IMG/VR virus record: IMGVR_UViG_3300002460_000007
Length of the DNA stretch: 47,457 nt
DNA from: a virus
Strand: one strand, 5' to 3'
A program made the position numbers and the translations under genes. Within the stretch, counting starts at the first letter, position 1; each line of letters begins with the position of its first letter. A model generated the notes under the pieces. It was not told the DNA's origin. It worked only from the letters and a program-made list of their open reading frames with translations, and did not search any database. Of this stretch, positions 1,359 through 47,457 are shown piece after piece.

Positions 1359-1387
1359 TTGACAAACTTGCTTAAATATGTTATGCT
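1359..1387 (+). promoter_or_regulatory. Rightward early promoter: TTGACA-17-tgtTATGCT
   Basis: Perfect -35, 17-nt spacer and extended -10. Confidence 0.7.
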
Positions 1388-1393
1388 AGAAGC

Positions 1394-1419
1394 AGTGATT
1401 CGCGGGAGTCTTATTAAGG
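1394..1419 (+). promoter_or_regulatory. Promoter-proximal leader box: AGTGATTCGCGGGAGTCTTATTAAGG
   Basis: 19 of the first 20 nt are identical to the minus-strand leader at 30005-30030. Both sit the same 6 nt from their -10. Confidence 0.6.
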
Positions 1420-1550: not shown

Positions 1551-1898
1551 TTGCGCGTTTCGGCTGTCAGAGGGTCGCCAGCACGCGCATGTGCGGTCAA
1601 CAGATATGGGGCCGCTGTTGGGGTATGGGCAACAAAAAACGCGCCGTCTGTTGGCGCGTACAATGTGTCCCATGTCATATTGTCTCTAGGGTGTCAACAT
1701 TGTGGATACAACGAGCATGCCTACGCTTTGGACTTAGACCACATTGACCCATCCACTAAGTTTGCTCCGGTCAGTGCGATGGTGGGTAGCTACACCCTCA
1801 ACAGACTAAAAAAAGAGGTGGCAAAATGCACTGTCCTATGTGCAATCTGCCACCGTATTAAAACCTGGGAACCCGAACGGCTGTCCCTAGCGGTCTAG
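1551..1898 (+). CDS. HNH homing endonuclease; true start probably GTG 1665 or TTG 1680
   Basis: CQHC...LDLDHIDP...NRL...CAICHRIK, i.e. CxxC / DH / N / CxxCH, a zinc-type beta-beta-alpha-Me finger. Confidence 0.75.
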   Translation: MRVSAVRGSPARACAVNRYGAAVGVWATKNAPSVGAYNVSHVILSLGCQHCGYNEHAYALDLDHIDPSTKFAPVSAMVGSYTLNRLKKEVAKCTVLCAICHRIKTWEPERLSLAV

Positions 1899-3637: not shown

Positions 3638-3666
3638 TTGACAAACTCTTTCAAATGGTGTATAAT
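3638..3666 (+). promoter_or_regulatory. Consensus promoter: TTGACA-17-TATAAT, head of the structural arm
   Basis: Perfect hexamers. Confidence 0.8.
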
Positions 3667-3680
3667 AGCAAGGAACGAGC

Positions 3681-3696
3681 GCAGGGGGTCTTTATA
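3681..3696 (+). promoter_or_regulatory. Conserved downstream box: GCAGGGGGTCTTTATA
   Basis: GGGGGTC starts 18 nt after the -10. GGGGGTC (3685-3691) can pair with GACCCCC (3722-3728) around the terS ATG. Confidence 0.55.
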
Positions 3697-9049: not shown

Positions 9050-12000
9050 ATGTTACCTGGTTTCGCATCCAAGAAGAAACGAGCAAAGCAGCTTCAGACT
9101 GAGGCTGCCATGCGTACATTTAGGCAGGTTGAGCAACAGACTCAGCCCCGCCGTCTTGTTCCCTTTTCCACCCGCACTGCTGCTGGAACTCCCTTTGACC
9201 TTTCATTTCAGCGAGAAGACCCTGACTATGCCCGTGAGGGGATAGAGAGACTCAAGAAACTGCGGGAACACGCTACACTATCAGTACAAGGAAAAGTACC
9301 ACCAGACCTAGAGACTCCTGAACAACGCACTCAGCACTTTATCCTCAACTATGCGGGCATCCGTGCCCGACAGGGATTGGACTTTGATAGTGCTATTGAT
9401 GAGGCAGTACAAAACGCTGTAGCCCACGGTATACCTGAAAAGTATGCTAGGGATGAAGCTGAAAGGAATAGAGGATTCTGGAGTAAGCTTGGCGGTGCTC
9501 TTCTCAAAGAGGGAGACTTCATTGCCGATGTAGCAATTAGGGACACTGTGCACGATATTGAGAGTGCTTTCAATAGGACTCGTCGCTTCAAGGGTGTCCT
9601 ACCACTCCTAAAAGGTGAGGAGCCCTTTATGACAGAGAGGGAGGCTGAGGAGCACTTTGGCCCTTCTCTGGATATAAGCAGAGAATTGCAGGCTCGCCTT
9701 GATGCTGCTGATGAGGCTAAAGTTCTTTCTCGCCCAGTGGTTCTAGGAGCACAAGAGGCGTTAGCCCGAACTCTGGAGGGACGAGGGGGTAGGGAGAATG
9801 TCTTATCACGCGCAGTACGAAGCCGTGCAGTCACAGAAGTTGGGGCTGAGTTACTTAATCCGATTTATCTTGTATCCGCTTTGCCTTTCCTAAGTCTACG
9901 ACCAGGAGTTTCCGGTGCTAGAGCAACAGCGGATGTAATATCACAACTTGTTGCTACTGGATTAGAGCCTGGTGCAGCCGTTGGCTTCTACAAAGGTTTC
10001 CGCGCTATTGGCAAAGGCACTCTTCGGGCAACGCTTCGTGGTCTTGCTAAGGGCACTGTTCAAACCCTTGAGAAAGAACGAGGCACGCGACTAGCTGCGG
10101 GAATCTTAGGGGAAGCTGACCCGAAAGCACAGGGATTGGCCTTCTCTCGATGGGTTATGAACGAGGATGACCCGTATGAGGCTGGAGTCAAGTGGGCCAG
10201 AGCCACCAACTCAGGCGTGGAAACTGCCGTTACCAATGTCGAAGACCTTGCTGCGCGTCAACGCACTCTGACAGACCTTATTCAAGAGAAGGAAATCAAC
10301 CCCCTCACTGGCCGTCCTACTCAGGAACCTCCTACTATTAAGTCTCCCATGAGAGTACAGATTGAGGACGAGATAAAGGCAGGTAAAACTGCCGAGGAGC
10401 TTCTGGACGAAACGACAGCACGTATTGCTGAGAGTCCTAGGCTTGCTGGTGAAGAGGTCGGAGATGTCTCTGATTCACTTTCTAAAGCTGGAATTCCTGA
10501 AGATGTAGCTAGGCTTCTCACTGACCCTGAGAATCTTTATCCCAAGGGAACACAAGTCTCAATCACTAAAGGCCCACTTAGTGGACAAACTGGTAAAATC
10601 ACTAGCTACACCAAGGTCACAAACTCTTACAAGATTCGAGTAGGTAAGAAGACAACTGACCTTCAGGCTAAGTTCTTCGATGCTATTGAGGATATAGAAC
10701 AACAAGCTGGTAAGATTACCTCTGAGGTGGACGATATTGGTGTTCACACTAACATCAGTTCTATCCTTGATGAATCTGACAATGCTGCCCGTGCCCAACG
10801 CTCTGCCGACCTAGGTGCCGACGAAGTTACAGGAGAGCCTGTCCGCCCATCGTCTGACCCCGCGATTCCTCATCCTGACAAGATTCCCGATAAGGTGATG
10901 ACTAAAGAGGCGCGGGAAGCGATGTACCGTGTCATTGATAAGATACGCCGCACTCAATCGTGGACAGCCGTTGTCCAGAGCGCGATGGAACACGAGATGC
11001 GGGCGCTAGATGTAGATTTGGAAACAGGACTAATCCGAACTGCCACCCCAAAGGATGGAGTATCTAGCACACACTGGGCCGAAGTCTTGTCTGACCCCGA
11101 CAAGTATGATTTTGTTGGGGCTGAGGCTTCGGACATTGAAAAAGCTATACGGAGCTACAACCTATTCACCTTTCAATCCGTCGAGGACGGAGTAAGGGCT
11201 GGTATATTTGATGATGCCTTCTTAAATTTCATCAAACCTGATGGCAAGCGATACGTCCACCGCGTGGCTATCTCTATCGAACAGGATGGGGAAGTCATCG
11301 AGCTTCGCCGTTCCTCTCGTCATGGCCCTCTTGGGCAGAAACAGTCTCACCAAATGCCTCGCACAAGGGAGACTATCGACGAGGCAGGGAGACCGGAAGT
11401 TGTCTATCTAAATAATCCATCTGCGGCCCTAGCAGAATTCATTGAAGAGGTAAACTATCGAATAGCTGTCAAGGAACTAGCCAACGACCTAGAGAAGTAC
11501 GCGGTCACTCCCCACGCACAGCAAGCAACCCGTGTGGCTTATGATGAGGCACGAGAGAAGGCACAGAGTCTCTCCACACAGTTAGAGGACTTGACCCGAA
11601 CTCGTCTGGTTATGCTTGATGAGGAACGTTTAGCTGAGGCAGCGGGTGAGGTAAAGAATGCTGAACGTCTGCGAAGCAATCTTACAGCTATTGAACTAGA
11701 CCTTGACCAAACCAACAAGGAGCTAAAGACTGCCCGCTCTCAGGCCAAGCGACTGCAAAAGACAGTTGCTTACGAGAAAAAGACTTTCCGTTCTATCAAC
11801 ATAGAGCTACAAGGAATCCGTGAGCCGTTTGCTGGAGGCAAGCTCTACCCTAAGTCTGTAGCAGATACAGTTGAACGAACTCTCCGCCTAAACCACCGTG
11901 GTATTGTCTATGGCACAGCTGTCAAGGGCCTTGAGCTTCTGCGGGAAGTCAACAAAGTATTCAAGCCTGTCTGGGCTAGCGCGGACATGTCATTCATCGG

Positions 12001-14080
12001 GCTACAGACCTTGCCCTCTCTTGCTGTCAATCCTGTTGCTTTCGCAGATATGATGAAAGTCACATTCTCCAGTGCAGTCGATGGAGACGTGTACAATGCT
12101 TGGGTTCACTCGCACTTACCTCTTCTACAGGATATGATTGACGATGGTGTTCCCATGTTGGGCACCGAACTCAGCGCAACAGACCTACTAAACCGTATCG
12201 AGAAGACTGCCGGAAAATGGAGCACTAAGTACACCCCACTGTGGTTTATGAAGGGTGGAAACCATATGTGGAATAGGGCGGTGAACATGATTGGTGCTTC
12301 TCTATATGAGCAGAATCGTGCTCTTATGGAAGAGGTTGGTCACAGCAACTATCTACATCTTGCCCAGAAAGCATTTGGCCCCAATATCGTTGGCAAGGAC
12401 ATAACCTCTGCCAGACGTGCTTTGGCCGATGTTGTGTCGCACGGTACTGGACGACTCTCGGCCAATGACCTCATGCACCGTGGCCCAGGAATGAGGCTTC
12501 TATCTGACTCTATTCTATTCGCCGGACAATACTTTGAGTCGTACTTACGGCTCATTATGGACGCACGGCGATTAGGAATTCGTGGCAATCTTGGGCGTCG
12601 TCTCCTAGCAGGATGGGCAACTACAGCTATTGGTGGTTATGTTGCTCTATCTTATATACTAGGACAGGAACCAAAACTAGACCCCACGAAGTATGGCTCC
12701 CAGATTCTTACTGTGCGTTTGGGAAATCAGAACGTGGGATTTGGTGGTGTATTGCAGCAGCTTATGCTCTATGGGGGCAGACTGTCAGAAGCAAAAAGTC
12801 CTCAAGATGTTTTTGATATTACTGAGAGGTTCGTCCGCAGCAAGCAATCTCCGGCCCTATCCTTTGCCTCAGACCTATTCATCAATCGTGCGGATTACAT
12901 AGGGCGCAAGCTTGACACTCGTAATTCCATCCTTGCATATTTAGCCAGTCGTTTTGTCCCCTTTGTGGGCCAAGATATGCTTCGGGAAACGCTAGCAAGG
13001 GGACTATCTGGAGATTGGAGACTCCCAGAGGAATTGAATCCTACCAATGTAATAGGGACACTTCTCGGAGGTCGGTCGTTCCCTGTCTCCAAGAAGACCC
13101 TCCGTAATGAAATCGGAGTGGAAGAGTATCGTCTAAATAATCCACAATCCAAGGAGACTGACGAGTATATTGTAGACAACTACATAAATCCCCAAGTCTT
13201 CATGAGTGACCCTGAGAACTATCCGCGTACTATGAAGGCACAAGAAGAGGTAGATGCGTGGCAGCGAGAGACTGGTTCAAAGTGGCAGGAATATTCTGAT
13301 AAGCGACAGAGTTATAATGATAATCAATTCCAGAAGGATATTGAAGATGGGGCTAAGGAAATTCAATGGGGTCGCGCTGGCGGAGGGGTAACATTTCGAG
13401 AGGATGTACTGCCAGAAGCCTATGCTGGAAAGAACTCATATAACGACCAGACACTTCTAGACCTTGGGCTCAATCCAGATGACTTGCCCGAAGTACAGGG
13501 GAACGACATCAAACTTCTGCGAGACTATCATGCACTGAATTATGATAGTTATAAGGCAGCGGATGGAATTACTCCCGACCCAGAGGGGTACAAAGCTGCT
13601 CAACAGAGTATCCTGAACCAGATGTCCCCTGCTATGAGAGGCTTCATTGAGTCTGGCAAGGATGGTAGGATTACGTCAAGGAAGGGTAAAGACGCAAATA
13701 CTCGCCTAATTTCTACTCGTACTGACCTTCGACGGTGGTTTGATGCTCCGAAATATAAGGGACTCACTGGAGACGAAAGTAAACAGGTTGACCAACTCCT
13801 TGAGTGGGCCTCTACTCTACACGACATGGCAACTCTATCCGGTGTATCCATCGACCGCCGAAAGATTATAGCAATGATGGGGTCTATTCCTCAATATTCT
13901 AAGCTTGCTGCTGTCGCCTTCTTCGCTACCTTCGAGGGTCTGAAGAGTATGGTTCTCAGCGATGAGCAGGAAAAGATAACGATGTCCAACGGGGATTTGG
14001 CAGTTTTCTACCCATTCACCTACGAAGATTTATCTGACGAACTCAAGGTAGACTGGGCAAAACTGTATGGAATGAGATAA
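9050..14080 (+). CDS. Giant virion-associated protein, 1,676 aa (polyvalent or internal-protein type)
   Basis: Uninterrupted ORF between the portal and scaffold genes. KOW/SH3-like GTQVSITKGPLSGQTGKITSY, long coiled coil and hydrophobic segments. No recognisable SD. Confidence 0.6.
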   Translation: MLPGFASKKKRAKQLQTEAAMRTFRQVEQQTQPRRLVPFSTRTAAGTPFDLSFQREDPDYAREGIERLKKLREHATLSVQGKVPPDLETPEQRTQHFILNYAGIRARQGLDFDSAIDEAVQNAVAHGIPEKYARDEAERNRGFWSKLGGALLKEGDFIADVAIRDTVHDIESAFNRTRRFKGVLPLLKGEEPFMTEREAEEHFGPSLDISRELQARLDAADEAKVLSRPVVLGAQEALARTLEGRGGRENVLSRAVRSRAVTEVGAELLNPIYLVSALPFLSLRPGVSGARATADVISQLVATGLEPGAAVGFYKGFRAIGKGTLRATLRGLAKGTVQTLEKERGTRLAAGILGEADPKAQGLAFSRWVMNEDDPYEAGVKWARATNSGVETAVTNVEDLAARQRTLTDLIQEKEINPLTGRPTQEPPTIKSPMRVQIEDEIKAGKTAEELLDETTARIAESPRLAGEEVGDVSDSLSKAGIPEDVARLLTDPENLYPKGTQVSITKGPLSGQTGKITSYTKVTNSYKIRVGKKTTDLQAKFFDAIEDIEQQAGKITSEVDDIGVHTNISSILDESDNAARAQRSADLGADEVTGEPVRPSSDPAIPHPDKIPDKVMTKEAREAMYRVIDKIRRTQSWTAVVQSAMEHEMRALDVDLETGLIRTATPKDGVSSTHWAEVLSDPDKYDFVGAEASDIEKAIRSYNLFTFQSVEDGVRAGIFDDAFLNFIKPDGKRYVHRVAISIEQDGEVIELRRSSRHGPLGQKQSHQMPRTRETIDEAGRPEVVYLNNPSAALAEFIEEVNYRIAVKELANDLEKYAVTPHAQQATRVAYDEAREKAQSLSTQLEDLTRTRLVMLDEERLAEAAGEVKNAERLRSNLTAIELDLDQTNKELKTARSQAKRLQKTVAYEKKTFRSINIELQGIREPFAGGKLYPKSVADTVERTLRLNHRGIVYGTAVKGLELLREVNKVFKPVWASADMSFIGLQTLPSLAVNPVAFADMMKVTFSSAVDGDVYNAWVHSHLPLLQDMIDDGVPMLGTELSATDLLNRIEKTAGKWSTKYTPLWFMKGGNHMWNRAVNMIGASLYEQNRALMEEVGHSNYLHLAQKAFGPNIVGKDITSARRALADVVSHGTGRLSANDLMHRGPGMRLLSDSILFAGQYFESYLRLIMDARRLGIRGNLGRRLLAGWATTAIGGYVALSYILGQEPKLDPTKYGSQILTVRLGNQNVGFGGVLQQLMLYGGRLSEAKSPQDVFDITERFVRSKQSPALSFASDLFINRADYIGRKLDTRNSILAYLASRFVPFVGQDMLRETLARGLSGDWRLPEELNPTNVIGTLLGGRSFPVSKKTLRNEIGVEEYRLNNPQSKETDEYIVDNYINPQVFMSDPENYPRTMKAQEEVDAWQRETGSKWQEYSDKRQSYNDNQFQKDIEDGAKEIQWGRAGGGVTFREDVLPEAYAGKNSYNDQTLLDLGLNPDDLPEVQGNDIKLLRDYHALNYDSYKAADGITPDPEGYKAAQQSILNQMSPAMRGFIESGKDGRITSRKGKDANTRLISTRTDLRRWFDAPKYKGLTGDESKQVDQLLEWASTLHDMATLSGVSIDRRKIIAMMGSIPQYSKLAAVAFFATFEGLKSMVLSDEQEKITMSNGDLAVFYPFTYEDLSDELKVDWAKLYGMR

Positions 14081-19554: not shown

Positions 19555-19583
19555 TTGACAAACTAGTGAAAATGTGTTATAAT
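19555..19583 (+). promoter_or_regulatory. Consensus promoter: ggacTTGACA-17-tgtTATAAT
   Basis: Perfect hexamers. Confidence 0.8.
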
Positions 19584-19596
19584 AAAGCTGTATACG

Positions 19597-19611
19597 GCGG
19601 GGGTCTTTATA
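19597..19611 (+). promoter_or_regulatory. Conserved downstream box: GCGGGGGTCTTTATA
   Basis: GGGGGTC starts 15 nt after the -10. The box ends 1 nt before ATG 19613. Confidence 0.55.
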
Positions 19612-19612
19612 G

Positions 19613-20893
19613 ATGAGACTCAAGAAACTTCCATCTTACTTCGCCACGTCAGGACATACCCACTCTATCTATGTCTTGACTGCTGACCACGGGGGCACTA
19701 CTCCGTCTGGGCACCACTCCAACACCAACGATGTTACCGCTGCTGCTGTCCTCGCCGACACCGCGCTGGTTCGCGGCTCAGGTGGGGCTAGGGGTGTTCA
19801 GGATTCCCTTGTCCTTTGCGATGCCGGAGGTAACGTTACGGGGGTCGGTCAGCTTACAGCAGTCAGTTTCGCCACCACACCTACGTCACCGACTAAGTTC
19901 ATAGGTACTTATTCTGGGTCAGATACACCCAGCTTGGCCCCATTTTTCGTTCTCCGTAGGGCCAGAGACGGCACCCCAACTTACATTGTAACAGCGGGCG
20001 ACTACCTGGGAGGGTTTCAGTGGGCTGGAGGCGCTACTGAAGTCCCTGCCTACGGGACGGGGGCGGCGCTGTACGCCATAGCGACTGAAGCGTTTGGTGT
20101 TCTTAATTACGGCACCAAACTTGAGTTCTGGGTCTGTCCTAACGGCTCGCCGACAGCGGCGGTGAAGATGCGGCTAGACCAGGACGGCAAACTGTACGCG
20201 CTCGGCGGCCTGGATGTGACGGGGAACATTGTTGTCTCCGGTAACGTAGATGGGGTGGACGTAGGAGCGCACGACGTTGCGACAACTGGAGTCCATGGTG
20301 CGGGGGCGAATACGCTCTTGCACTCGGCCTCGGCTGCGGGGGGAGACGCTACGGGAACACTAGGGGCGTTGGTTATCGCTGATGATAGTCACGGGCACAC
20401 AAGTACCACCGTAACGACACACAGTACGGCCCACGCTAATGACCACACCCGCTCCCACGACCTCGAAGGCGCGTCCGACCACACCACATCTTCAGGCGTG
20501 GACGGCCACTTCATGCGGCAGACTGGGGTGACAACCTATGCCTTTGAGGCAGACTACTACACCATCAACTTCATCATCAATGGCGGCGGCGCGGCTATCA
20601 CAACTGGAGTCAAGGGCTGGGCTGAGGTTCCTGGGCCTGGGGTACTGGAAGAGTGGCGCATCCTGCTATCGGCTGCCGAGAACATCACCGTGGACATTGA
20701 CTATGACACCTACGCGAACTTCCCCACGGTGGGGAACAATTTAGTAGCGCCGTCCACAACGGGTGTGCAGAAAAACGAAGCCACGGGGCTTTCCGCCGCG
20801 ATACCCGACAAGAGCATCCTCGAATTTGATGTGACGGGCGCTCCTGCCACAGCACAGATGTGTACCGTAGCACTTAGAATAAGGAAGACATGA
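19613..20893 (+). CDS. Tail fibre protein candidate
   Basis: Gly/Thr/Ala-rich with a His-rich HxH-type segment (HGHTSTTVTTHSTAHANDHTRSHD), as in trimeric fibre metal sites. Confidence 0.6.
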   Translation: MRLKKLPSYFATSGHTHSIYVLTADHGGTTPSGHHSNTNDVTAAAVLADTALVRGSGGARGVQDSLVLCDAGGNVTGVGQLTAVSFATTPTSPTKFIGTYSGSDTPSLAPFFVLRRARDGTPTYIVTAGDYLGGFQWAGGATEVPAYGTGAALYAIATEAFGVLNYGTKLEFWVCPNGSPTAAVKMRLDQDGKLYALGGLDVTGNIVVSGNVDGVDVGAHDVATTGVHGAGANTLLHSASAAGGDATGTLGALVIADDSHGHTSTTVTTHSTAHANDHTRSHDLEGASDHTTSSGVDGHFMRQTGVTTYAFEADYYTINFIINGGGAAITTGVKGWAEVPGPGVLEEWRILLSAAENITVDIDYDTYANFPTVGNNLVAPSTTGVQKNEATGLSAAIPDKSILEFDVTGAPATAQMCTVALRIRKT

Positions 20894-24246: not shown

Positions 24247-24539
24247 TGATAGAAGCAGTGCGAAGATTCTACAGATTCTTTTGGATTCACACATCTGGTC
24301 GCCCCTGGACATACGAAATTCGTGACTGGACAGAGAGACATCGAATATGGGGCGCTCTAATAACAGGTGGTGTTACGACTGCCTTCTTTACTGGACAGAT
24401 GCTACTAACTATATACTTCGGGTATTGGTCTATACCATTCATGGTGTGGGCTGACTTCATGGCGTTTGTTGCGGGTCATTTATTTTGGGACAGCGAAGGT
24501 ACGTACATTCAACTTAAGGAGAAATTTCGTAATGGCTAA
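24246..24539 (+). CDS. Membrane protein, 97 aa with 2 TM segments (track ORF trimmed)
   Basis: TAATG coupling. Hydrophobic segments IWGALITGGVTTAFFTGQMLL and IPFMVWADFMAFVAGHLFW. Confidence 0.55.
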   Translation: MIEAVRRFYRFFWIHTSGRPWTYEIRDWTERHRIWGALITGGVTTAFFTGQMLLTIYFGYWSIPFMVWADFMAFVAGHLFWDSEGTYIQLKEKFRNG

Positions 24540-24933
24540 GTCTAGAACACCACTGACAGTTCCTCAGATGACTCCAGTTGAATGCGCTTGGTTAGGGGCC
24601 TTTCTAGAGGCTGATGGGAATGCTAATGTTTATCATAATAGGGGAGGCTCAAAGAACACAACAAGCTTGGTTCTTAGGATAAGCCAATCTATCGTGAACC
24701 CAGAGCCTATTTCAGCGGCTTTACGATGTACTAACGCTGGTTCGGTATCTGTTTCTAACATTCAGTATAACTCCGAGATACGTCCAGTTCTCCAATGGCA
24801 GGTTGATAGTAGATTGAATGCAGTCTGTTTGGCAAAACAACTAGCTCCCTACTCACCTAAAGTTAAAGATGCCTTAGATAAATGGTTAGCTTGGGACACC
24901 GACGGCGCCTACATTCACATGAAAGGGACATAG
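24532..24933 (+). CDS. LAGLIDADG homing endonuclease, paralogue of 5526-5885
   Basis: CAWLGAFLEADGNANVY motif and PEPISAAL, compared with PEVISVLL in the other copy. Confidence 0.7.
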   Translation: MAKSRTPLTVPQMTPVECAWLGAFLEADGNANVYHNRGGSKNTTSLVLRISQSIVNPEPISAALRCTNAGSVSVSNIQYNSEIRPVLQWQVDSRLNAVCLAKQLAPYSPKVKDALDKWLAWDTDGAYIHMKGT

Positions 24934-29213: not shown

Positions 29214-29987
29214 ATGAATGCTGATTACCCAGGAGCCATTGTCGTCGAGGCCGCTAACTACGGATACAGCGGCGCTTTCAATCGTCCTCGTGCTTGGGCC
29301 CTGCATACACCAGAAGAACTTGCTGATTCAGACCCTCAGACCCCATACTATTTCCATAATACAACTAGAGAGGCGTCCACAACATACTTCGTATCCTACT
29401 TGGGCTTTGTGTTCCAGTGTGTGCCTGAGTCCGAAGGCGCTTACGCTAATGCTGTGGAGGGTAAACCTTACCCCAGTTGGGCAGACTCAACCATCAACCT
29501 GAACCTCCAAACACTATCTGTAGAAATAGAAGGATTTGCCACTGATATTCACCTTACAATGCCACGGGGCTCTCCTCAGTGGAAGGCTCTAGTTGACCTT
29601 ATGGCTCACCGATGCAAAGCCTTGGGAATACCACCAGATAGAACATTTGGGCATTATGAGGTCAGTATATATCGGGGAGACCCAGGACAATTGGACATAC
29701 CACAGTTAGTAGCGGACGTAGTAGCAAAGATGGAGGAAGATATGCCAAAACTAATTCATTGCATAGATGGTGGTAAAGTCTATGTCGTGGGAGAAGTTGG
29801 TAAGCGCCATATCGACGACCAAGCAGAACTGGGTATTTATATCAGACTGTTTGGTGCGTGGATGGATGTCTACCAAGCAGAGGCCGACATGATACCGGAT
29901 GTCCCCAGTGTCACAGGAAATGCTGTAGATGTTGCATCTATAGCTAGCGCGGTTGCCAACGAACTAGCACGACGTATGGTGACGTAG
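29214..29987 (+). CDS. Endolysin, N-acetylmuramoyl-L-alanine amidase (Amidase_2/PGRP type)
   Basis: WALHTPEE...YFVSYLGFVFQCV...NLQTLSVEIEGFA...GHYEV...GDPG matches the T7-lysozyme-type layout. Confidence 0.75.
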   Translation: MNADYPGAIVVEAANYGYSGAFNRPRAWALHTPEELADSDPQTPYYFHNTTREASTTYFVSYLGFVFQCVPESEGAYANAVEGKPYPSWADSTINLNLQTLSVEIEGFATDIHLTMPRGSPQWKALVDLMAHRCKALGIPPDRTFGHYEVSIYRGDPGQLDIPQLVADVVAKMEEDMPKLIHCIDGGKVYVVGEVGKRHIDDQAELGIYIRLFGAWMDVYQAEADMIPDVPSVTGNAVDVASIASAVANELARRMVT

Positions 29988-30022
29988 ATAAAAAGAGCGG
30001 GAGGCTTATAAAAGACCCCCGC
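29988..30022 (-). terminator. Intrinsic terminator, functional mainly on the minus strand
   Basis: On the minus strand: GCGGGGG, a 12-nt loop, CCUCCCGC, then UCUUUUUAUC. The plus-strand version has an A-C mismatch and no U tract. Confidence 0.6.
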
Positions 30023-30036
30023 GAATCACTAATTCG

Positions 30037-30065
30037 ATTATACCACATTCAGAGGCGTTTGTCAA
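30037..30065 (-). promoter_or_regulatory. Consensus promoter: ggcTTGACA-17-tggTATAAT, pointing at the end of the late arm
   Basis: Perfect hexamers on the minus strand. The leader is homologous to the 1394-1419 leader. Confidence 0.75.
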
Positions 30066-30182
30066 GCCCCCTGGCGATAAATCTTTGACAAGGCATAGAT
30101 TAGGAACAACGGTGCTACTGCCAGCGGTGCCCACCACTGCCCGTTCATACCCGCCACTGCTGCAACGGACAGTACATAGAAT

Positions 30183-30353
30183 CTAAGCACGGTAGATTAC
30201 CTTAAAATACCCCCCGCCCGTGCTCTCCAAAGCTTCTTCTCTCTCCTTCTTTTCCAAATAGTGCTCGCAGAACTTAATGTGCCGTTTGTTTCGTCTCTGA
30301 CAAGGCAAGATATGGCCGTTGTAGTTTGTCCCTTTATGTCTTTTCCACTGCAT
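30183..30353 (-). CDS. Small basic protein, 56 aa (track ORF trimmed)
   Basis: TAATG coupling to the nrdJ stop. Confidence 0.45.
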   Translation of the reverse strand: MQWKRHKGTNYNGHILPCQRRNKRHIKFCEHYLEKKEREEALESTGGGYFKVIYRA

Positions 30354-31927
30354 TAAGAACAACCTCCTCCACAATCAGGACACATAAAGCATGTACCGTC
30401 AGGCACCGACTCACTATGGTTACAAGCGGAGATAGACTCATCTACCTTGGCCCGAAGAACCTGCTTCTCCCTACACCCATCACGGAACACTGTGACACCC
30501 TTGCAGCCTCTTGCCCATGCACGCTTATACGAGTTTAGTACATCATCTACTGTCGCAGCGTTGGGCATATTGATAGTCTTCGATACGGACTGGTCAACAT
30601 GCTTTTGAAAGATAGCTTGGTGTTCTAGGTGCCACTTCCAATCTATCTCATGCGCTGTCTTAGGTCGAAACTCCGAGAATTTCAGTGTTGGGTTAATCTG
30701 CTCGTGCAACTGTGTACCGTCACCCATAGTCCGAACCCAAGAGTCAGAGAAATGTGGCTCAATCCCTGCGGAGCAACCAGCAAGCAGCGAGATGCTGCCA
30801 GTTGGTGCAATAGCTGTCCTACACGCATTACGATAAAGAGTCCTCGTCTCCCCTTTGTAAGCAGGGGCAGGGCCCCGAACTCTGGCAAGACTAGCACTCG
30901 TTGAATCAGCCACCTTCTGTACTGTTGACATAACCTTACCCGCCAAGTCCAAAGCAGTCTGACTATCATACGGTATTCTCAACTGCGCCAACATATCGGC
31001 CCAACCCATCACACCAAGGCCGAGCTTCCTAGTCAGACGCACAGCCTCGGTTATATCTTCGTGAGGGAACTGGTTATGCTCAAGTATGTCATCGAGGAAC
31101 TGAATAGCCGTGGCAACCGTGGCCTGTAGTTCAGTAAACTTGACACGACCATCATCAGCAAACTTGGACAAGTTTATACTGCCCAAGTTACACGCCTCAT
31201 TGTCCAGAAGGGGAATCTCACCGCACGGGTTAGTGCCTGTAAGTTTGCCCAACCACGGCGTAGGATTATCTCTTTCCGCAGCATCAATGAAATAACACCC
31301 TGGGTCTCCAGTTGCCCACGCTACCTCGGCCATAAGACCAAGTAACTTCTCGGCCTGTGTGCCCCCCACCATCACCTCTTCCATGAACTTGTCTGTTAGT
31401 GCAACAGAAACATTGAAAGTCCGAAGACCATCGGGATTCACGGCCTTCATAGTGATAAACTCTTCAACATCAGGATGGTCACAGGATATGATAGCCATCT
31501 GTGCGGCCTCTCGCTTGCCCGACTGGGTGACAACTTCGCCCAACGAGTTGAACATCCTGATAAATCCCACAGGGCCACCAGCGGTATTACCCGTGCCCAA
31601 CACTGGGGCACCCTTGCCTCGCACTTCGGACAACACATACCCCACACCCCCTCCCCATTTCTGCACCAGCGCAGCTTTCTTTGCCACGTCCATGATACCA
31701 ATCATGTCATCAGGAACGTCGAACTTGAAACAAGCGGACAGTGTACCTCTGCCTGTACCAGCATTGAAAAGGGTTGGACTGTTAGGGAGAAATTCTAAGT
31801 CTCGCATCATGCGATAGTAACTTGGATTGCCGAAGCTGACTCGTTGCAGCATCTCATCGGGTGTCTCTCTCTCCATGAGATACCGTTTTTGGAGCACTAG
31901 CAAAGCATTGCCGTTGAAGTTGGACAC
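30353..31927 (-). CDS. nrdJ: Class II (adenosylcobalamin-type) ribonucleotide reductase
   Basis: Active-site NPCGEIPL and an N-terminal LQKRYL. The C-terminal Cys tail is CFMCPDCGGGCS. Confidence 0.85.
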   Translation of the reverse strand: MSNFNGNALLVLQKRYLMERETPDEMLQRVSFGNPSYYRMMRDLEFLPNSPTLFNAGTGRGTLSACFKFDVPDDMIGIMDVAKKAALVQKWGGGVGYVLSEVRGKGAPVLGTGNTAGGPVGFIRMFNSLGEVVTQSGKREAAQMAIISCDHPDVEEFITMKAVNPDGLRTFNVSVALTDKFMEEVMVGGTQAEKLLGLMAEVAWATGDPGCYFIDAAERDNPTPWLGKLTGTNPCGEIPLLDNEACNLGSINLSKFADDGRVKFTELQATVATAIQFLDDILEHNQFPHEDITEAVRLTRKLGLGVMGWADMLAQLRIPYDSQTALDLAGKVMSTVQKVADSTSASLARVRGPAPAYKGETRTLYRNACRTAIAPTGSISLLAGCSAGIEPHFSDSWVRTMGDGTQLHEQINPTLKFSEFRPKTAHEIDWKWHLEHQAIFQKHVDQSVSKTINMPNAATVDDVLNSYKRAWARGCKGVTVFRDGCREKQVLRAKVDESISACNHSESVPDGTCFMCPDCGGGCS

Positions 31928-31989
31928 GGGTACAGTTATCCTTTCGATAAACTATTAGGCTATTGGCTCTCCGAGCGGGGGAGGACTCT

Positions 31990-32018
31990 ATTATACACCA
32001 TCCCTCGTTGTTTGTCAA
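31990..32018 (-). promoter_or_regulatory. Consensus promoter: ccTTGACA-17-TATAAT, upstream of nrdJ
   Basis: Perfect hexamers. CCCCCGC, an inverted half of the box, follows. Confidence 0.8.
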
Positions 32019-32140: not shown

Positions 32141-32218
32141 TGGAGTAGGGGATGGGACTCGAACCCACAACTTGCTGAGTCACAGTCAGCCGGTCTACCA
32201 TTTGACCGCTACCCCTAC
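32141..32218 (-). tRNA. tRNA, anticodon GUG (His), CCA encoded
   Basis: 7-bp acceptor stem, T arm gtggg-ttcgagt-cccat and anticodon arm gctga-CUGUGAC-tcagc. The D arm is slightly irregular. A-1 can pair with U73. Confidence 0.6.
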
Positions 32219-32222
32219 TTTT

Positions 32223-32304
32223 TGGTGGAGCCGGTGGGTGTCGAACCCACGTCCTGAGTACGTCCTTTTCAGGCTTTACTACTCAGTCGAACCCTCGCGG
32301 CCCC
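32223..32304 (-). ncRNA. tRNA-like element, 82 nt: acceptor stem, canonical T arm and CCA, but no D arm or anticodon arm
   Basis: ggggccg pairs with cggctcc (one G-U). T arm gtggg-ttcgaca-cccac. The interior folds as a 7-bp stem ctgagta/tactcag with a 19-nt loop. Confidence 0.4.
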
Positions 32305-46667: not shown

Positions 46668-47457
46668 CTATCTAAACGTGTGGGAACCAAACTGTTTCCA
46701 CGCATGATAACGCTTAGTGTGTGGTTCTTCTTCCGGCAGATGCTTCTCAACGTACTCTATTCTACCCTCCAAGTTGGCATCGAGTATATCTTTGAGCCCA
46801 TACGTCGTCCACAGTTTGTTGAATATGCAGCCGTTGTTATGCTCCAGTCCGAAAGCGGTATCAACAAATGTGACCACACTAATCTCACCCTCCTCGAACT
46901 GCCTGAGTGTGGCCGCCACTTGTGCCCAAGCATGACCACCTACTGACCTTCCCCACTTGCCTTCTTCTAGAGCGTACTCCGCCTCTCTAAGAATGTCAGT
47001 GCCATACTCATCGCGCAGGGTTTTCCACTCTGCCCACGCCTTGCCTCGATTGATGTTACCATACTTACGATACCTTTTGTGTATTCTAGGCATCAGTCTC
47101 TTAGCCTCACCATCACCAATCGTCTCCGACCCATACCTAATCTCCCCACCAACAGCCATGTCTAGATAAGGAGCAAAGACTTCGGCCAGTTCCTTCGCGT
47201 AGTTCTCAAACTCTTGCTTGTAGCTTGGGTCACGCTCGGCCATAGTTGCTAGAGTATAGAATGTGGCCGCCGCTTGGTGTAGCTTAAACACAATGGGCAA
47301 CCCCCAATCTCCTACAGCCACATCAGATTCGGAATCGTGCCCGCAGTCACATTCACCGCTGCTAGTACACTCACCACAACGTCTGCATGAGTGGCAGCAA
47401 TCAGTACAGGTGCCACAATCGCCACACCAAGAGGCGCTGCTAGTACACTCACCACAA
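46668..47457 (-). CDS. C-terminal part of the junction-spanning Cys-ladder protein (orphan 217-aa domain plus repeat region)
   Basis: The frame is open from 47457 down to the stop at 46668. The track start (GTG 47321) is internal. The frame matches 1-624 after removal of the 43-nt overlap. Confidence 0.75.
   Translation of the reverse strand, partial: CGECTSSASWCGDCGTCTDCCHSCRRCGECTSSGECDCGHDSESDVAVGDWGLPIVFKLHQAAATFYTLATMAERDPSYKQEFENYAKELAEVFAPYLDMAVGGEIRYGSETIGDGEAKRLMPRIHKRYRKYGNINRGKAWAEWKTLRDEYGTDILREAEYALEEGKWGRSVGGHAWAQVAATLRQFEEGEISVVTFVDTAFGLEHNNGCIFNKLWTTYGLKDILDANLEGRIEYVEKHLPEEEPHTKRYHAWKQFGSHTFR
47359..47457 (-). repeat. 78-bp coding tandem repeat, right-end copies
   Basis: 47359-47414 equals unit positions 23-78. 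47415-47457 equals unit positions 1-43. Confidence 0.85.
47415..47457. repeat. Terminal identity, right copy: identical to 1-43
   Basis: Same 43-mer as the window start. It lies inside a coding tandem repeat. Confidence 0.9.

Follow-up and report, generated by a model that had tools for sequence, protein, structure and literature searches.

Where two long operon arms of a phage converge, what ends each of them, and what keeps one from running into the other? This question is raised by IMG/VR virus record IMGVR_UViG_3300002460_000007, a stretch of 47,457 nucleotides (nt) that was analyzed at its full length and is called the window here. In it, a rightward late arm ending with an endolysin gene faces a leftward replication and nucleotide-metabolism arm ending with an open reading frame (ORF) of 42 amino acids (aa), and 74 bp lie between the two converging stop codons. 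Because the stop of the 42-aa ORF overlaps a −35 hexamer and a U tract abuts the endolysin stop, the gap contains one element alone, a minus-strand cassette of promoter, leader, and hairpin at positions 30065 to 29988. Judged from its sequence and from those of its relatives, the cassette is best regarded as a genuine transcription unit of very small size, with a hairpin that functions in the RNA of the minus strand.

A promoter and a terminator fill the convergence point

Read along the minus strand, the cassette comprises TTGACA, 17 nt, TATAAT preceded by TGG, cgaatt, AGTGATTC, GCGGGGG, tcttttataagc, CTCCCGC, and TCTTTTTAT. A first-pass annotation of this DNA had placed a perfect minus-strand promoter here, and a promoter scan bore this out: the −35 hexamer (TTGACA, 30060 to 30065) and the −10 hexamer (TATAAT, 30042 to 30037) match the consensus at 12 of 12 positions across a 17-nt spacer, and the −10 is TG-extended (TGG plus TATAAT, 30037 to 30045). 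Throughout the genome, 8 perfect TTGACA-N16-18-TATAAT promoters were counted, compared to 0.013 expected from 300 dinucleotide shuffles, an excess which argues clearly that the host primary sigma factor reads the TTGACA/TATAAT consensus. Promoter geometry points to A30030 (range, 30029 to 30031, minus strand) as the probable transcription start, as this is the 7th nt after the −10, with a pyrimidine at −1 and a purine at +1; a pyrimidine-purine step at position 6/7 after the −10 is present in all 10 cassettes listed. The promoter had also been described as lying after the last leftward gene. It does sit at the end of the leftward arm, but the TGA of the 42-aa ORF (30064 to 30062) falls within the −35 hexamer.

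Downstream of the predicted start, the minus-strand RNA can fold into a terminator hairpin (29997 to 30022). Its arms, GCGGGGG (30022 to 30016) and CUCCCGC (30003 to 29997), form 7 bp including one G-U, and a 3-bp inner stem (30014 to 30012 with 30007 to 30005) is added within. The hairpin has a folding energy of −15.2 kcal/mol (z = −2.8), and directly after it lies a U tract, UCUUUUUAU (29988 to 29996), which abuts the endolysin stop codon at 29985 to 29987, where the amidase ORF ends as previously annotated. The earlier claim that the 7-bp hairpin and the U tract make a terminator in the minus sense only was likewise upheld, since the hairpin of the plus strand contains an A-C mismatch and lacks a U tract. 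A terminator scan with an 8-nt loop limit misses this hairpin, and the genome was rescanned by folding; minus-strand 29997 to 30022 then emerged as its sole convincing intergenic intrinsic terminator. Because it is the only good intrinsic terminator of the genome, is correctly oriented for the leftward arm, and lies 40 nt past the last leftward stop codon, the hairpin must end that arm, which is also the simplest reason for a minus-only terminator at the convergence point.

Put together, these parts predict an RNA of about 41 to 43 nt (29988 to 30030, minus strand) with the order 5'-AGUGAUUC-hairpin-UCUUUUU, released probably at about 29988 to 29990. An RNA of about 35 to 40 nt, antisense to the end of the late operon, had been proposed by the first-pass annotation. 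A short, self-terminating minus-strand unit is indeed backed by the relatives described below; however, its predicted length is 41 to 43 nt, and it does not overlap the endolysin coding sequence, given that the U tract ends at 29988 (the geometry is the same in relatives). Ending at the endolysin stop, the RNA would be complementary to late transcripts solely within their read-through tail. The description of the unit as an orphan holds only in part, because its terminator also serves the whole leftward arm. No Rfam family matches the unit. Taken by itself, this anatomy of a terminator plus a short RNA appears very likely.

The cassette is conserved in metagenomic relatives

Relatives were found by a scan for the promoter-plus-motif pattern and by protein look-ups (contigs and loci are cited here by L numbers). 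IMG/VR protein-pattern scans with endolysin and ribonucleotide reductase (RNR) queries found nothing. Distant endolysin homologues (L001 to L009) and distant RNR phages (L070 to L073) lack the promoters and the motif and were dropped, and a looser pattern, TATAAT-N-GCGGGGGTCTTT, gave chance hits only in IMG/VR, including L014, within a gene. Five sequence variants of the cassette occupy the same genomic place in related metagenomic phages, where RNR, a basic 56- to 63-aa ORF, mostly the 42-aa ORF, the cassette, and the stop of a converging late gene follow one another (L028, L038, L058/L060 to L069, L184, and L181 to L183). The 42-aa ORF is kept with mostly synonymous changes in L028 (with an ATG start), L060/L184, and L181 and is absent in L038, and L064 carries an extra 56-aa ORF at the junction. 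In the window, L060, and L181, an amidase gene converges on the cassette, but L038 has in its place an ORF with a C-terminus like that of the window's 173-aa protein.

Within the promoter, TTGACA is invariant in all five cassette variants. Across four variants, unchanged positions number 6 of 6 in the −35, 5 of 6 in the −10, and 8 of 17 in the spacer. The −10 reads TATAAT, TATACT, or, in the fifth variant, TACAAT, always with TGn ahead, and all five variants share the A at its position 2 and the T at its position 6. This pattern indicates that the cassette promoter is under purifying selection.

The hairpin arms are GCGGGGG/CUCCCGC in the window, GCGGAGG/CCUCCGC in L038, CGGGGGG/CCCCUCG in L028, and GGAGGGG/CUCCUCU in the L060 group of more than 10 contigs. 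By manual structural alignment of the arms of only these 4 variants (MAFFT misaligned one variant), every one of the 28 pair cells is a standard pair, and compensatory double changes are found in 4 of the 7 pairs. The hairpin is directional, belonging to the minus-strand RNA, because four G-U cells among the variants turn into A-C in the plus-strand RNA. Folding energies of the four variants are −15.2, −21.4, −17.0, and −15.3 kcal/mol on the minus strand and −14.1, −13.4, −9.3, and −10.2 kcal/mol on the plus strand, which is always the less stable. A U-rich tail is present on the minus strand in all variants, and a plus-strand U tract in none.

In L181 to L183, the leader hairpin is kept with one mismatch, and about 55 nt with two further hairpins stand in place of the U tract (L181, about 1138 to 1275). 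The last hairpin is a canonical terminator, GGCAGG-GAAAU-CCUGCC-UUUUCUUUUUAU, whose A- and U-rich flanks may allow bidirectional termination, and the RNA predicted for L181 is about 95 nt long and highly structured (z = −5.9). Because a promoter firing into a nearby terminator is retained even where the terminator itself has been exchanged, this arrangement appears to be kept by selection. The 5' tail of the RNA differs among variants (AGUGAUUC, AGAGCCAGAAUUGC, AGAGGUAGUGUAC), and the conservation of the hairpin loop, UCUUUAUAAG, equals that of this motif in other leaders.

The cassette belongs to a family of promoter leaders

The first-pass annotation had matched the leader of the cassette to that of the rightward early promoter at 1394 in 19 of 20 nt, at the same spacing from the −10. 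The resemblance is real, and both leaders begin 6 nt after the −10, but the match between AGTGATTCGCGGGGGTCTT (30030 to 30012, minus strand) and 1394 to 1412 (plus strand) covers 18 of 19 nt with one mismatch, and it reflects membership in a family of at least five promoters instead of a relationship unique to this pair. Two leader matches did not arise in any of 100 shuffles. The shared leader element, GCGGGGG-UCUUUUAUA (30007 to 30022, minus strand), consists of a G-run plus a boxA-like GGUCUUU(U)A. Of about 13 strong promoters, 5 (1359+, 3638+, 19555+, 42384−, and 30065−) carry GCGGGGGTCTTTATA about 20 to 22 nt after the −10 (TCTT begins 21 to 23 nt after), and the leader motif is found only downstream of promoters and nowhere else in the genome.

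The paralogous cassettes lie at 1359 to 1416 (plus strand; the one that had been noticed through the match at 1394), at 3638 to 3696 (plus strand, ahead of terS/terL; orthologues in L015 and L017 keep the motif), at 19555 to 19611 (plus strand, inside the late arm, where the G-run is the ribosome-binding site of an ORF at 19613; orthologue in L043/L048), and at 42327 to 42384 (minus strand, in the leftward arm; orthologue in L051). At the orthologous promoters (L015, L017, L043, L051, and L023), the motif is kept while the preceding bases drift. The first transcribed bases of the convergent unit resemble the leader of the 1359 promoter in the window (AGTGATTC) and the 42384-type leader, a different paralogue, in L028/L038 (CAGAATTGCGCGG), which suggests exchange of leaders among cassettes. 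A complement with which the G-run can pair lies downstream in each leader, at a distance that varies, and this partner co-varies between orthologues: the terS leader pairs GGGGGUC with GACCCCC in the window versus CGGAGGU with ACCUCCG in L017, and the 42384 leader pairs GGCCUU with AAGGCC in the window versus GGGUCU with AGACUC in L051. The overall folding energies of the leaders are unexceptional.

Other roles for the leader were considered and rejected as general explanations. A micro-ORF (GUG AUU CGC GGG ...) can be read in the 1359 and 30065 leaders, and other family members have no in-frame start. The motif acts as a Shine-Dalgarno sequence only at the 19555 promoter (8 nt before the ATG); in L017, in L046, and at 1359 the real ribosome-binding site lies further downstream. 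A sigma-dependent pause element was discarded, as conservation covers UCUUUAUA instead of TATAAT and does not extend to the last T. The leader of the RNR promoter (31968 to 32018, minus strand) begins with AGAGUCCUCCCCCGCUCGGAGAG, a C-run that complements the other leaders' G-run and is identical in L058 and L184; pairing in trans with this C-rich leader (CCUCCCCCGC) was dismissed because no co-variation is seen in the L060 lineage.

The leader core resembles boxA

The 8-nt core of the leader motif, GGUCUUUA, is the same as the core of boxA in the rrn leaders of several phyla, and the boxA-like phage leader sequence can be written as GGUCUUUAUAA. In a scan of 185,579 genomes for GGTCTTTA at 71 to 131 nt upstream of the 16S 5' end, 107 hits were obtained, many of them at chance level. 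GGTCTTTAACAA(C/T)T recurs as an evident rrn-leader boxA in Ca. Saccharibacteria (8 loci), some Chloroflexota, and Campylobacterota, and GGTCTTTAACATC does so in Peregrini-/Gracilibacteria. NusB-NusE recognize 8 nt of boxA (PMC3177189), and the recurrence of GGUCUUUA in rrn leaders therefore makes it a natural variant of this 8-nt core. The convergent copy in the window has one extra U (GGUCUUUUA). The search consensus for boxA is GYTCTTTAANA (PMC5725501); the 3' extension AACAA is not matched, the phage motif continuing with UAUAA, UAUAG, or UAUAC, and the phage motif is preceded by a conserved G-run that boxA does not require. boxA thus appears as the best single lead to what the leader motif may be.

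As an observation on rrn leaders themselves, the GGTCTTTAACAA and GGTCTTTAACATC forms of boxA have a G at the second position, versus a pyrimidine in the gammaproteobacterial consensus. Loci with these forms are L085, L093, L108, L112, L128, L132, L148, L157, L105, L115, L109, L092, L156, L127, L141, and L152.

A proposed boundary model and its alternatives

The first-pass annotation had suggested three functions, namely a tiny small RNA, a transcriptional-interference or collision device, and titration of a box-binding factor, and the sequence did not favor any one of these over the others. We favor, at somewhat better than even probability, a composite model in which the terminator of the leftward arm and the promoter with its short RNA together form an asymmetric boundary. 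The hairpin and U tract would act as the Rho-independent terminator of the whole leftward arm, so that leftward polymerases would stop exactly at the endolysin stop and no antisense transcription would run into the lysis and tail genes. The TG-extended, sigma-70-type promoter would fire into this terminator and give rise to an abundant hairpin RNA of about 41 nt with a 5' triphosphate, in effect the leader of at least four other phage operons in free-standing form. From the opposite side, late read-through polymerases would be met head-on by promoter-bound and initiating polymerases, and the RNA, being perfectly complementary to the first 40 nt or so of the read-through tail, could form a duplex that fixes or processes the 3' ends of late mRNA. 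No variant has a plus-strand intrinsic terminator for the late arm, and it is on this ground that the promoter and RNA are proposed as the other half of the boundary.

Several considerations weigh against the composite model. A bidirectional terminator would be a cheaper boundary, and the promoter may serve otherwise; the model also leaves the conserved hairpin loop (UCUUUAUAAG) unexplained. Elongating polymerases usually dislodge promoter-bound ones, which makes the strength of a head-on block doubtful, and Rho could end the C-rich, untranslated late read-through RNA without any device. Finally, use of the promoter and the terminator is predicted from consensus.

Retention of the motif in the hairpin loop, a part that is unconstrained in a plain terminator, would be expected of a decoy: the abundant short RNA would display the boxA-like GGUCUUUA and the G-run, titrating a binder (NusB-S10 or a phage protein) off phage or host rRNA leaders and thereby tuning antitermination or shutting down host rRNA synthesis. 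The same idea agrees with the placement of the motif solely after promoters, at a fixed 20 to 22 nt from the −10 in 5 cassettes plus orthologues, and with an 8-nt core that coincides exactly with that of rrn-leader boxA in Ca. Saccharibacteria, Chloroflexota, Campylobacterota, and Peregrini-/Gracilibacteria, 8 nt of boxA being what NusB-NusE recognize (PMC3177189). We nevertheless consider a decoy unlikely: folding of the RNA ties up half of the motif in the stem, the window's own copy carries the extra U (GGUCUUUUA), the 3' half reads UAUAA versus the canonical AACAA and GYTCTTTAANA, the G-run is conserved equally with the boxA-like part although boxA has no need of it, and the decoy would compete with the phage's own leaders. 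It is distinctly unlikely that the leader element is a host-type boxA through which the phage applies Nus antitermination to its long operons in the manner of rRNA and independently of N. The convergent cassette would then be a boxA within a terminator that follows an orphan consensus promoter, a sponge or sensor of Nus factors that would switch between the 41-nt RNA and antisense RNA over the lysis genes; if true, this would tie late and lysis timing to the free NusB-S10 pool. RNA-binding antiterminators occlude a terminator arm, and by analogy a factor on the leader could block pairing of the G-run with the 3' arm, exchanging the 41-nt RNA for a long antisense RNA across the lysis and tail genes as a late or lysis timer. 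Such regulated read-through would account jointly for the promoter, the motif, and a terminator whose 5' arm is the motif, and the co-varying pairing of the G-run with its downstream complement in other leaders (terS versus L017, 42384 versus L051) is consistent with it. Yet there is no candidate factor, Pfam and PHROG searches having matched no regulator, and the roughly 12 nt between the motif and the 3' arm would leave very little binding time. In L181 to L183, moreover, the working terminator is a separate hairpin without the motif, which argues against an essential occlusion of the motif, and downstream minus-strand genes are absent; we regard an attenuator of this kind as decidedly improbable.

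A different explanation takes the cassettes as repeated regulatory modules for homologous exchange between phage genomes, a recombination linker in which the junction copy would serve, or result from, module shuffling, the terminator would neutralize that copy, and the RNA would have no function. The junction is in fact mosaic, with no 42-aa ORF in L038, an extra 56-aa ORF in L064, and a different converging gene in L038, and the predicted transcript begins much like the 1359 leader in the window (AGTGATTC) and like the 42384 type in L028/L038 (CAGAATTGCGCGG); PeSLs, the model for such a linker, combine a near-consensus sigma-70 promoter with a stem-loop and are located at indel junctions (PMC2839356, PMC4122927). 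However, the hexamers are far better conserved than the spacer or the start of the leader, with key −10 positions fixed in five variants, and this conservation points to selection on promoter activity and not on homology alone. As the terminated short RNA has also been retained despite replacement of the terminator, we grant the linker only a small chance. Highly improbable, in our view, is a small RNA (sRNA) that acts in trans and uses its 8-nt 5' tail or its loop to pair with an mRNA of the phage or the host. A short 5' single strand, a terminator hairpin, and a U tail are the architecture of many base-pairing sRNAs, but no site complementary to the 19-nt leader with 3 or fewer mismatches occurs elsewhere in the genome, the 5' tail is unconserved (AGUGAUUC, AGAGCCAGAAUUGC, AGAGGUAGUGUAC), and Rfam holds no matching family.

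Under the composite boundary model, the locus would be a clear and comparatively supported case of one cassette filling the junction of converging phage operon arms, providing a terminator for one arm and a promoter-driven, predicted short RNA that faces the other. It would further illustrate how a repeated promoter-leader module can become a terminator by evolving a complementary 3' arm. Since the leaders share the core of a natural boxA variant, it is conceivable that phages beyond the lambdoid group enlist the host Nus complex directly. The cassette, which measures only 74 bp, is self-contained, and has a strong asymmetry, could also serve as a synthetic insulator part.

Genome context and other observations

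A 43-nt direct repeat is identical at positions 1 to 43 and 47415 to 47457. Assembly of a complete genome that is circular or terminally redundant leaves an end repeat of this kind, and for this reason the window is taken to be a complete circular phage genome of about 47.4 kb. Its arms diverge at about 1256/1359 and converge at the cassette. The plus-strand (late) arm, 3704 to 29987, encodes TerS, TerL, structural proteins, and the endolysin; the minus-strand (replication and nucleotide-metabolism) arm runs leftward from a promoter at 1256, across the window ends, to 30062, and its genes encode a helicase, a UDG-PolA fusion, a Rad52-like protein, nucleases, and RNR. The last late gene (29214 to 29987, plus strand) encodes the endolysin, an N-acetylmuramoyl-L-alanine amidase with matches to PF01510 and endolysin PHROGs. 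Facing it, the last gene of the leftward arm is the 42-aa ORF (30062 to 30190, minus strand), whose product is hydrophobic. Upstream of this lies the basic 56- to 63-aa ORF (30183 to 30374, minus strand; WKRHKGTNYNGHxLPCQRRNKRH..C.H), which is found in all relatives. No Pfam or PHROG family matched either protein; the basic one is a possible nucleic-acid binder.

GC skew tracks the transcription arms, and plus-strand RNA past 30000 is C-rich and G-poor (GC skew, −0.15). A role of the locus as a replication origin or primer found no support, the GC skew merely following the arms. The late arm is tiled gap-free by plus-strand ORFs, one with an HNH hit. Minus-strand genes within the late arm were considered as read-through targets and rejected, since plus-strand ORFs tile the region and no minus-strand genes lie downstream.

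Searches with megablast and blastn against GenBank phages returned no close DNA relative, TerL is less than 30% identical to that of any cultured phage, and a search for the host found the promoter-plus-motif combination in no genome. The phage lineage is deeply novel. Pfam and PHROG gave no match for the 1676-aa ORF (9050 to 14080, plus strand), the putative portal, and nearly all structural proteins (most of 5974 to 28683).

Further features were observed apart from the cassette. Beside a tRNA-His gene (32141 to 32218, minus strand) lies an 82-nt element resembling transfer-messenger RNA (tmRNA) (32223 to 32304, minus strand), with the tRNA-like domain only and no tag-coding part. It has the form GGGGCCG...GGGUUCGACACCC...CGGCUCCACCA, with a G3-U70 alanine-identity pair, and scored 61.7 bits against the Rfam tmRNA model in a search of the whole window; it was absent from a narrower re-search and was not called by ARAGORN. 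Candidate homing endonucleases are LAGLIDADG-like and HNH-like ORFs at 38927 to 39444 (minus strand), 24466 to 24933 (plus strand), and 1551 to 1898 (plus strand), with weak, sub-threshold hits only; the LAGLIDADG-like ORF has its own perfect promoter (39444 to 39416) and directly follows the gene that encodes the UDG-DNA polymerase A fusion. Another promoter arrangement recurs in contigs that are unrelated and mostly low in GC (L024, L033, L034, L036, L057, and L025/L035/L056), where a consensus promoter is followed by ACCTCT-loop-AGAGGTCTTTTTTT at about +1 and by GAGGGAGA about 20 nt later. With its hairpin at the transcription start, this arrangement would stop only upstream transcripts.

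Comparison with known systems

The oop RNA of phage lambda is 77 nt long, runs from its own promoter to a nearby terminator, and is antisense to the 3' end of cII; it overlaps the coding end of cII and acts through RNase III. The cassette shares with it the plan of a tiny phage RNA that has its own promoter and an adjacent intrinsic terminator, opposes a converging transcript, and is complementary to the 3' region of that transcript. It differs in that the predicted RNA stops at the stop codon, is complementary to the read-through tail only, and is half the size, and in that its terminator is common to a whole operon arm and the unit is built from a repeated leader cassette. Lambda pR'-tR', the source of "6S" RNA, likewise joins a strong constitutive promoter to a promoter-proximal terminator, under Q-type late control. 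Both systems would produce a short RNA by default and have a conserved initially transcribed region with a −10-like TATAAn. Unlike pR'-tR', the cassette has no late genes downstream in the same direction and points antisense into the late arm, its −10-like element lacks a conserved last T, and the same leader also stands on promoters without terminators; Pfam and PHROG searches of the genome's proteins gave no family match for a Q-like protein.

MicL and DapZ are sRNAs derived from 3' untranslated regions that have their own promoter, use the terminator of the mRNA, and act in trans with Hfq through a conserved seed. The cassette resembles them in having its promoter at the end of the last gene, with the stop codon inside the −35, and a terminator in common with the upstream mRNA; it differs in that no conserved seed or target was found for its RNA. 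The PeSLs of T4-type phages combine near-perfect sigma-70 promoters with G-run/C-run stem-loops that terminate upstream transcription (PMC2839356, PMC4122927). The cassette resembles them in its repeated consensus promoter, its G/C stem-loop, and its place at a mosaic junction. In PeSLs, however, the stem-loop lies between or over the hexamers and the element's own transcript escapes, whereas the hairpin of the cassette lies wholly past the start and its own RNA is terminated; the phage lineages are also unrelated (TerL below 30% identity to any cultured phage). With the boxA of rrn leaders and lambdoid nut sites (PMC3177189, PMC5725501), the leader element shares an identical 8-nt core, GGUCUUUA, near the 5' end of long operons. 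It differs in reading UAUAA in place of AACAA, in its preceding G-run, in being partly base-paired, and in its position at +14, nearer the start than known boxA elements. On sequence grounds, the cassette would work most like lambda oop, minus the coding-end overlap that defines oop, and it is a phage short-RNA/terminator cassette outside any named family.

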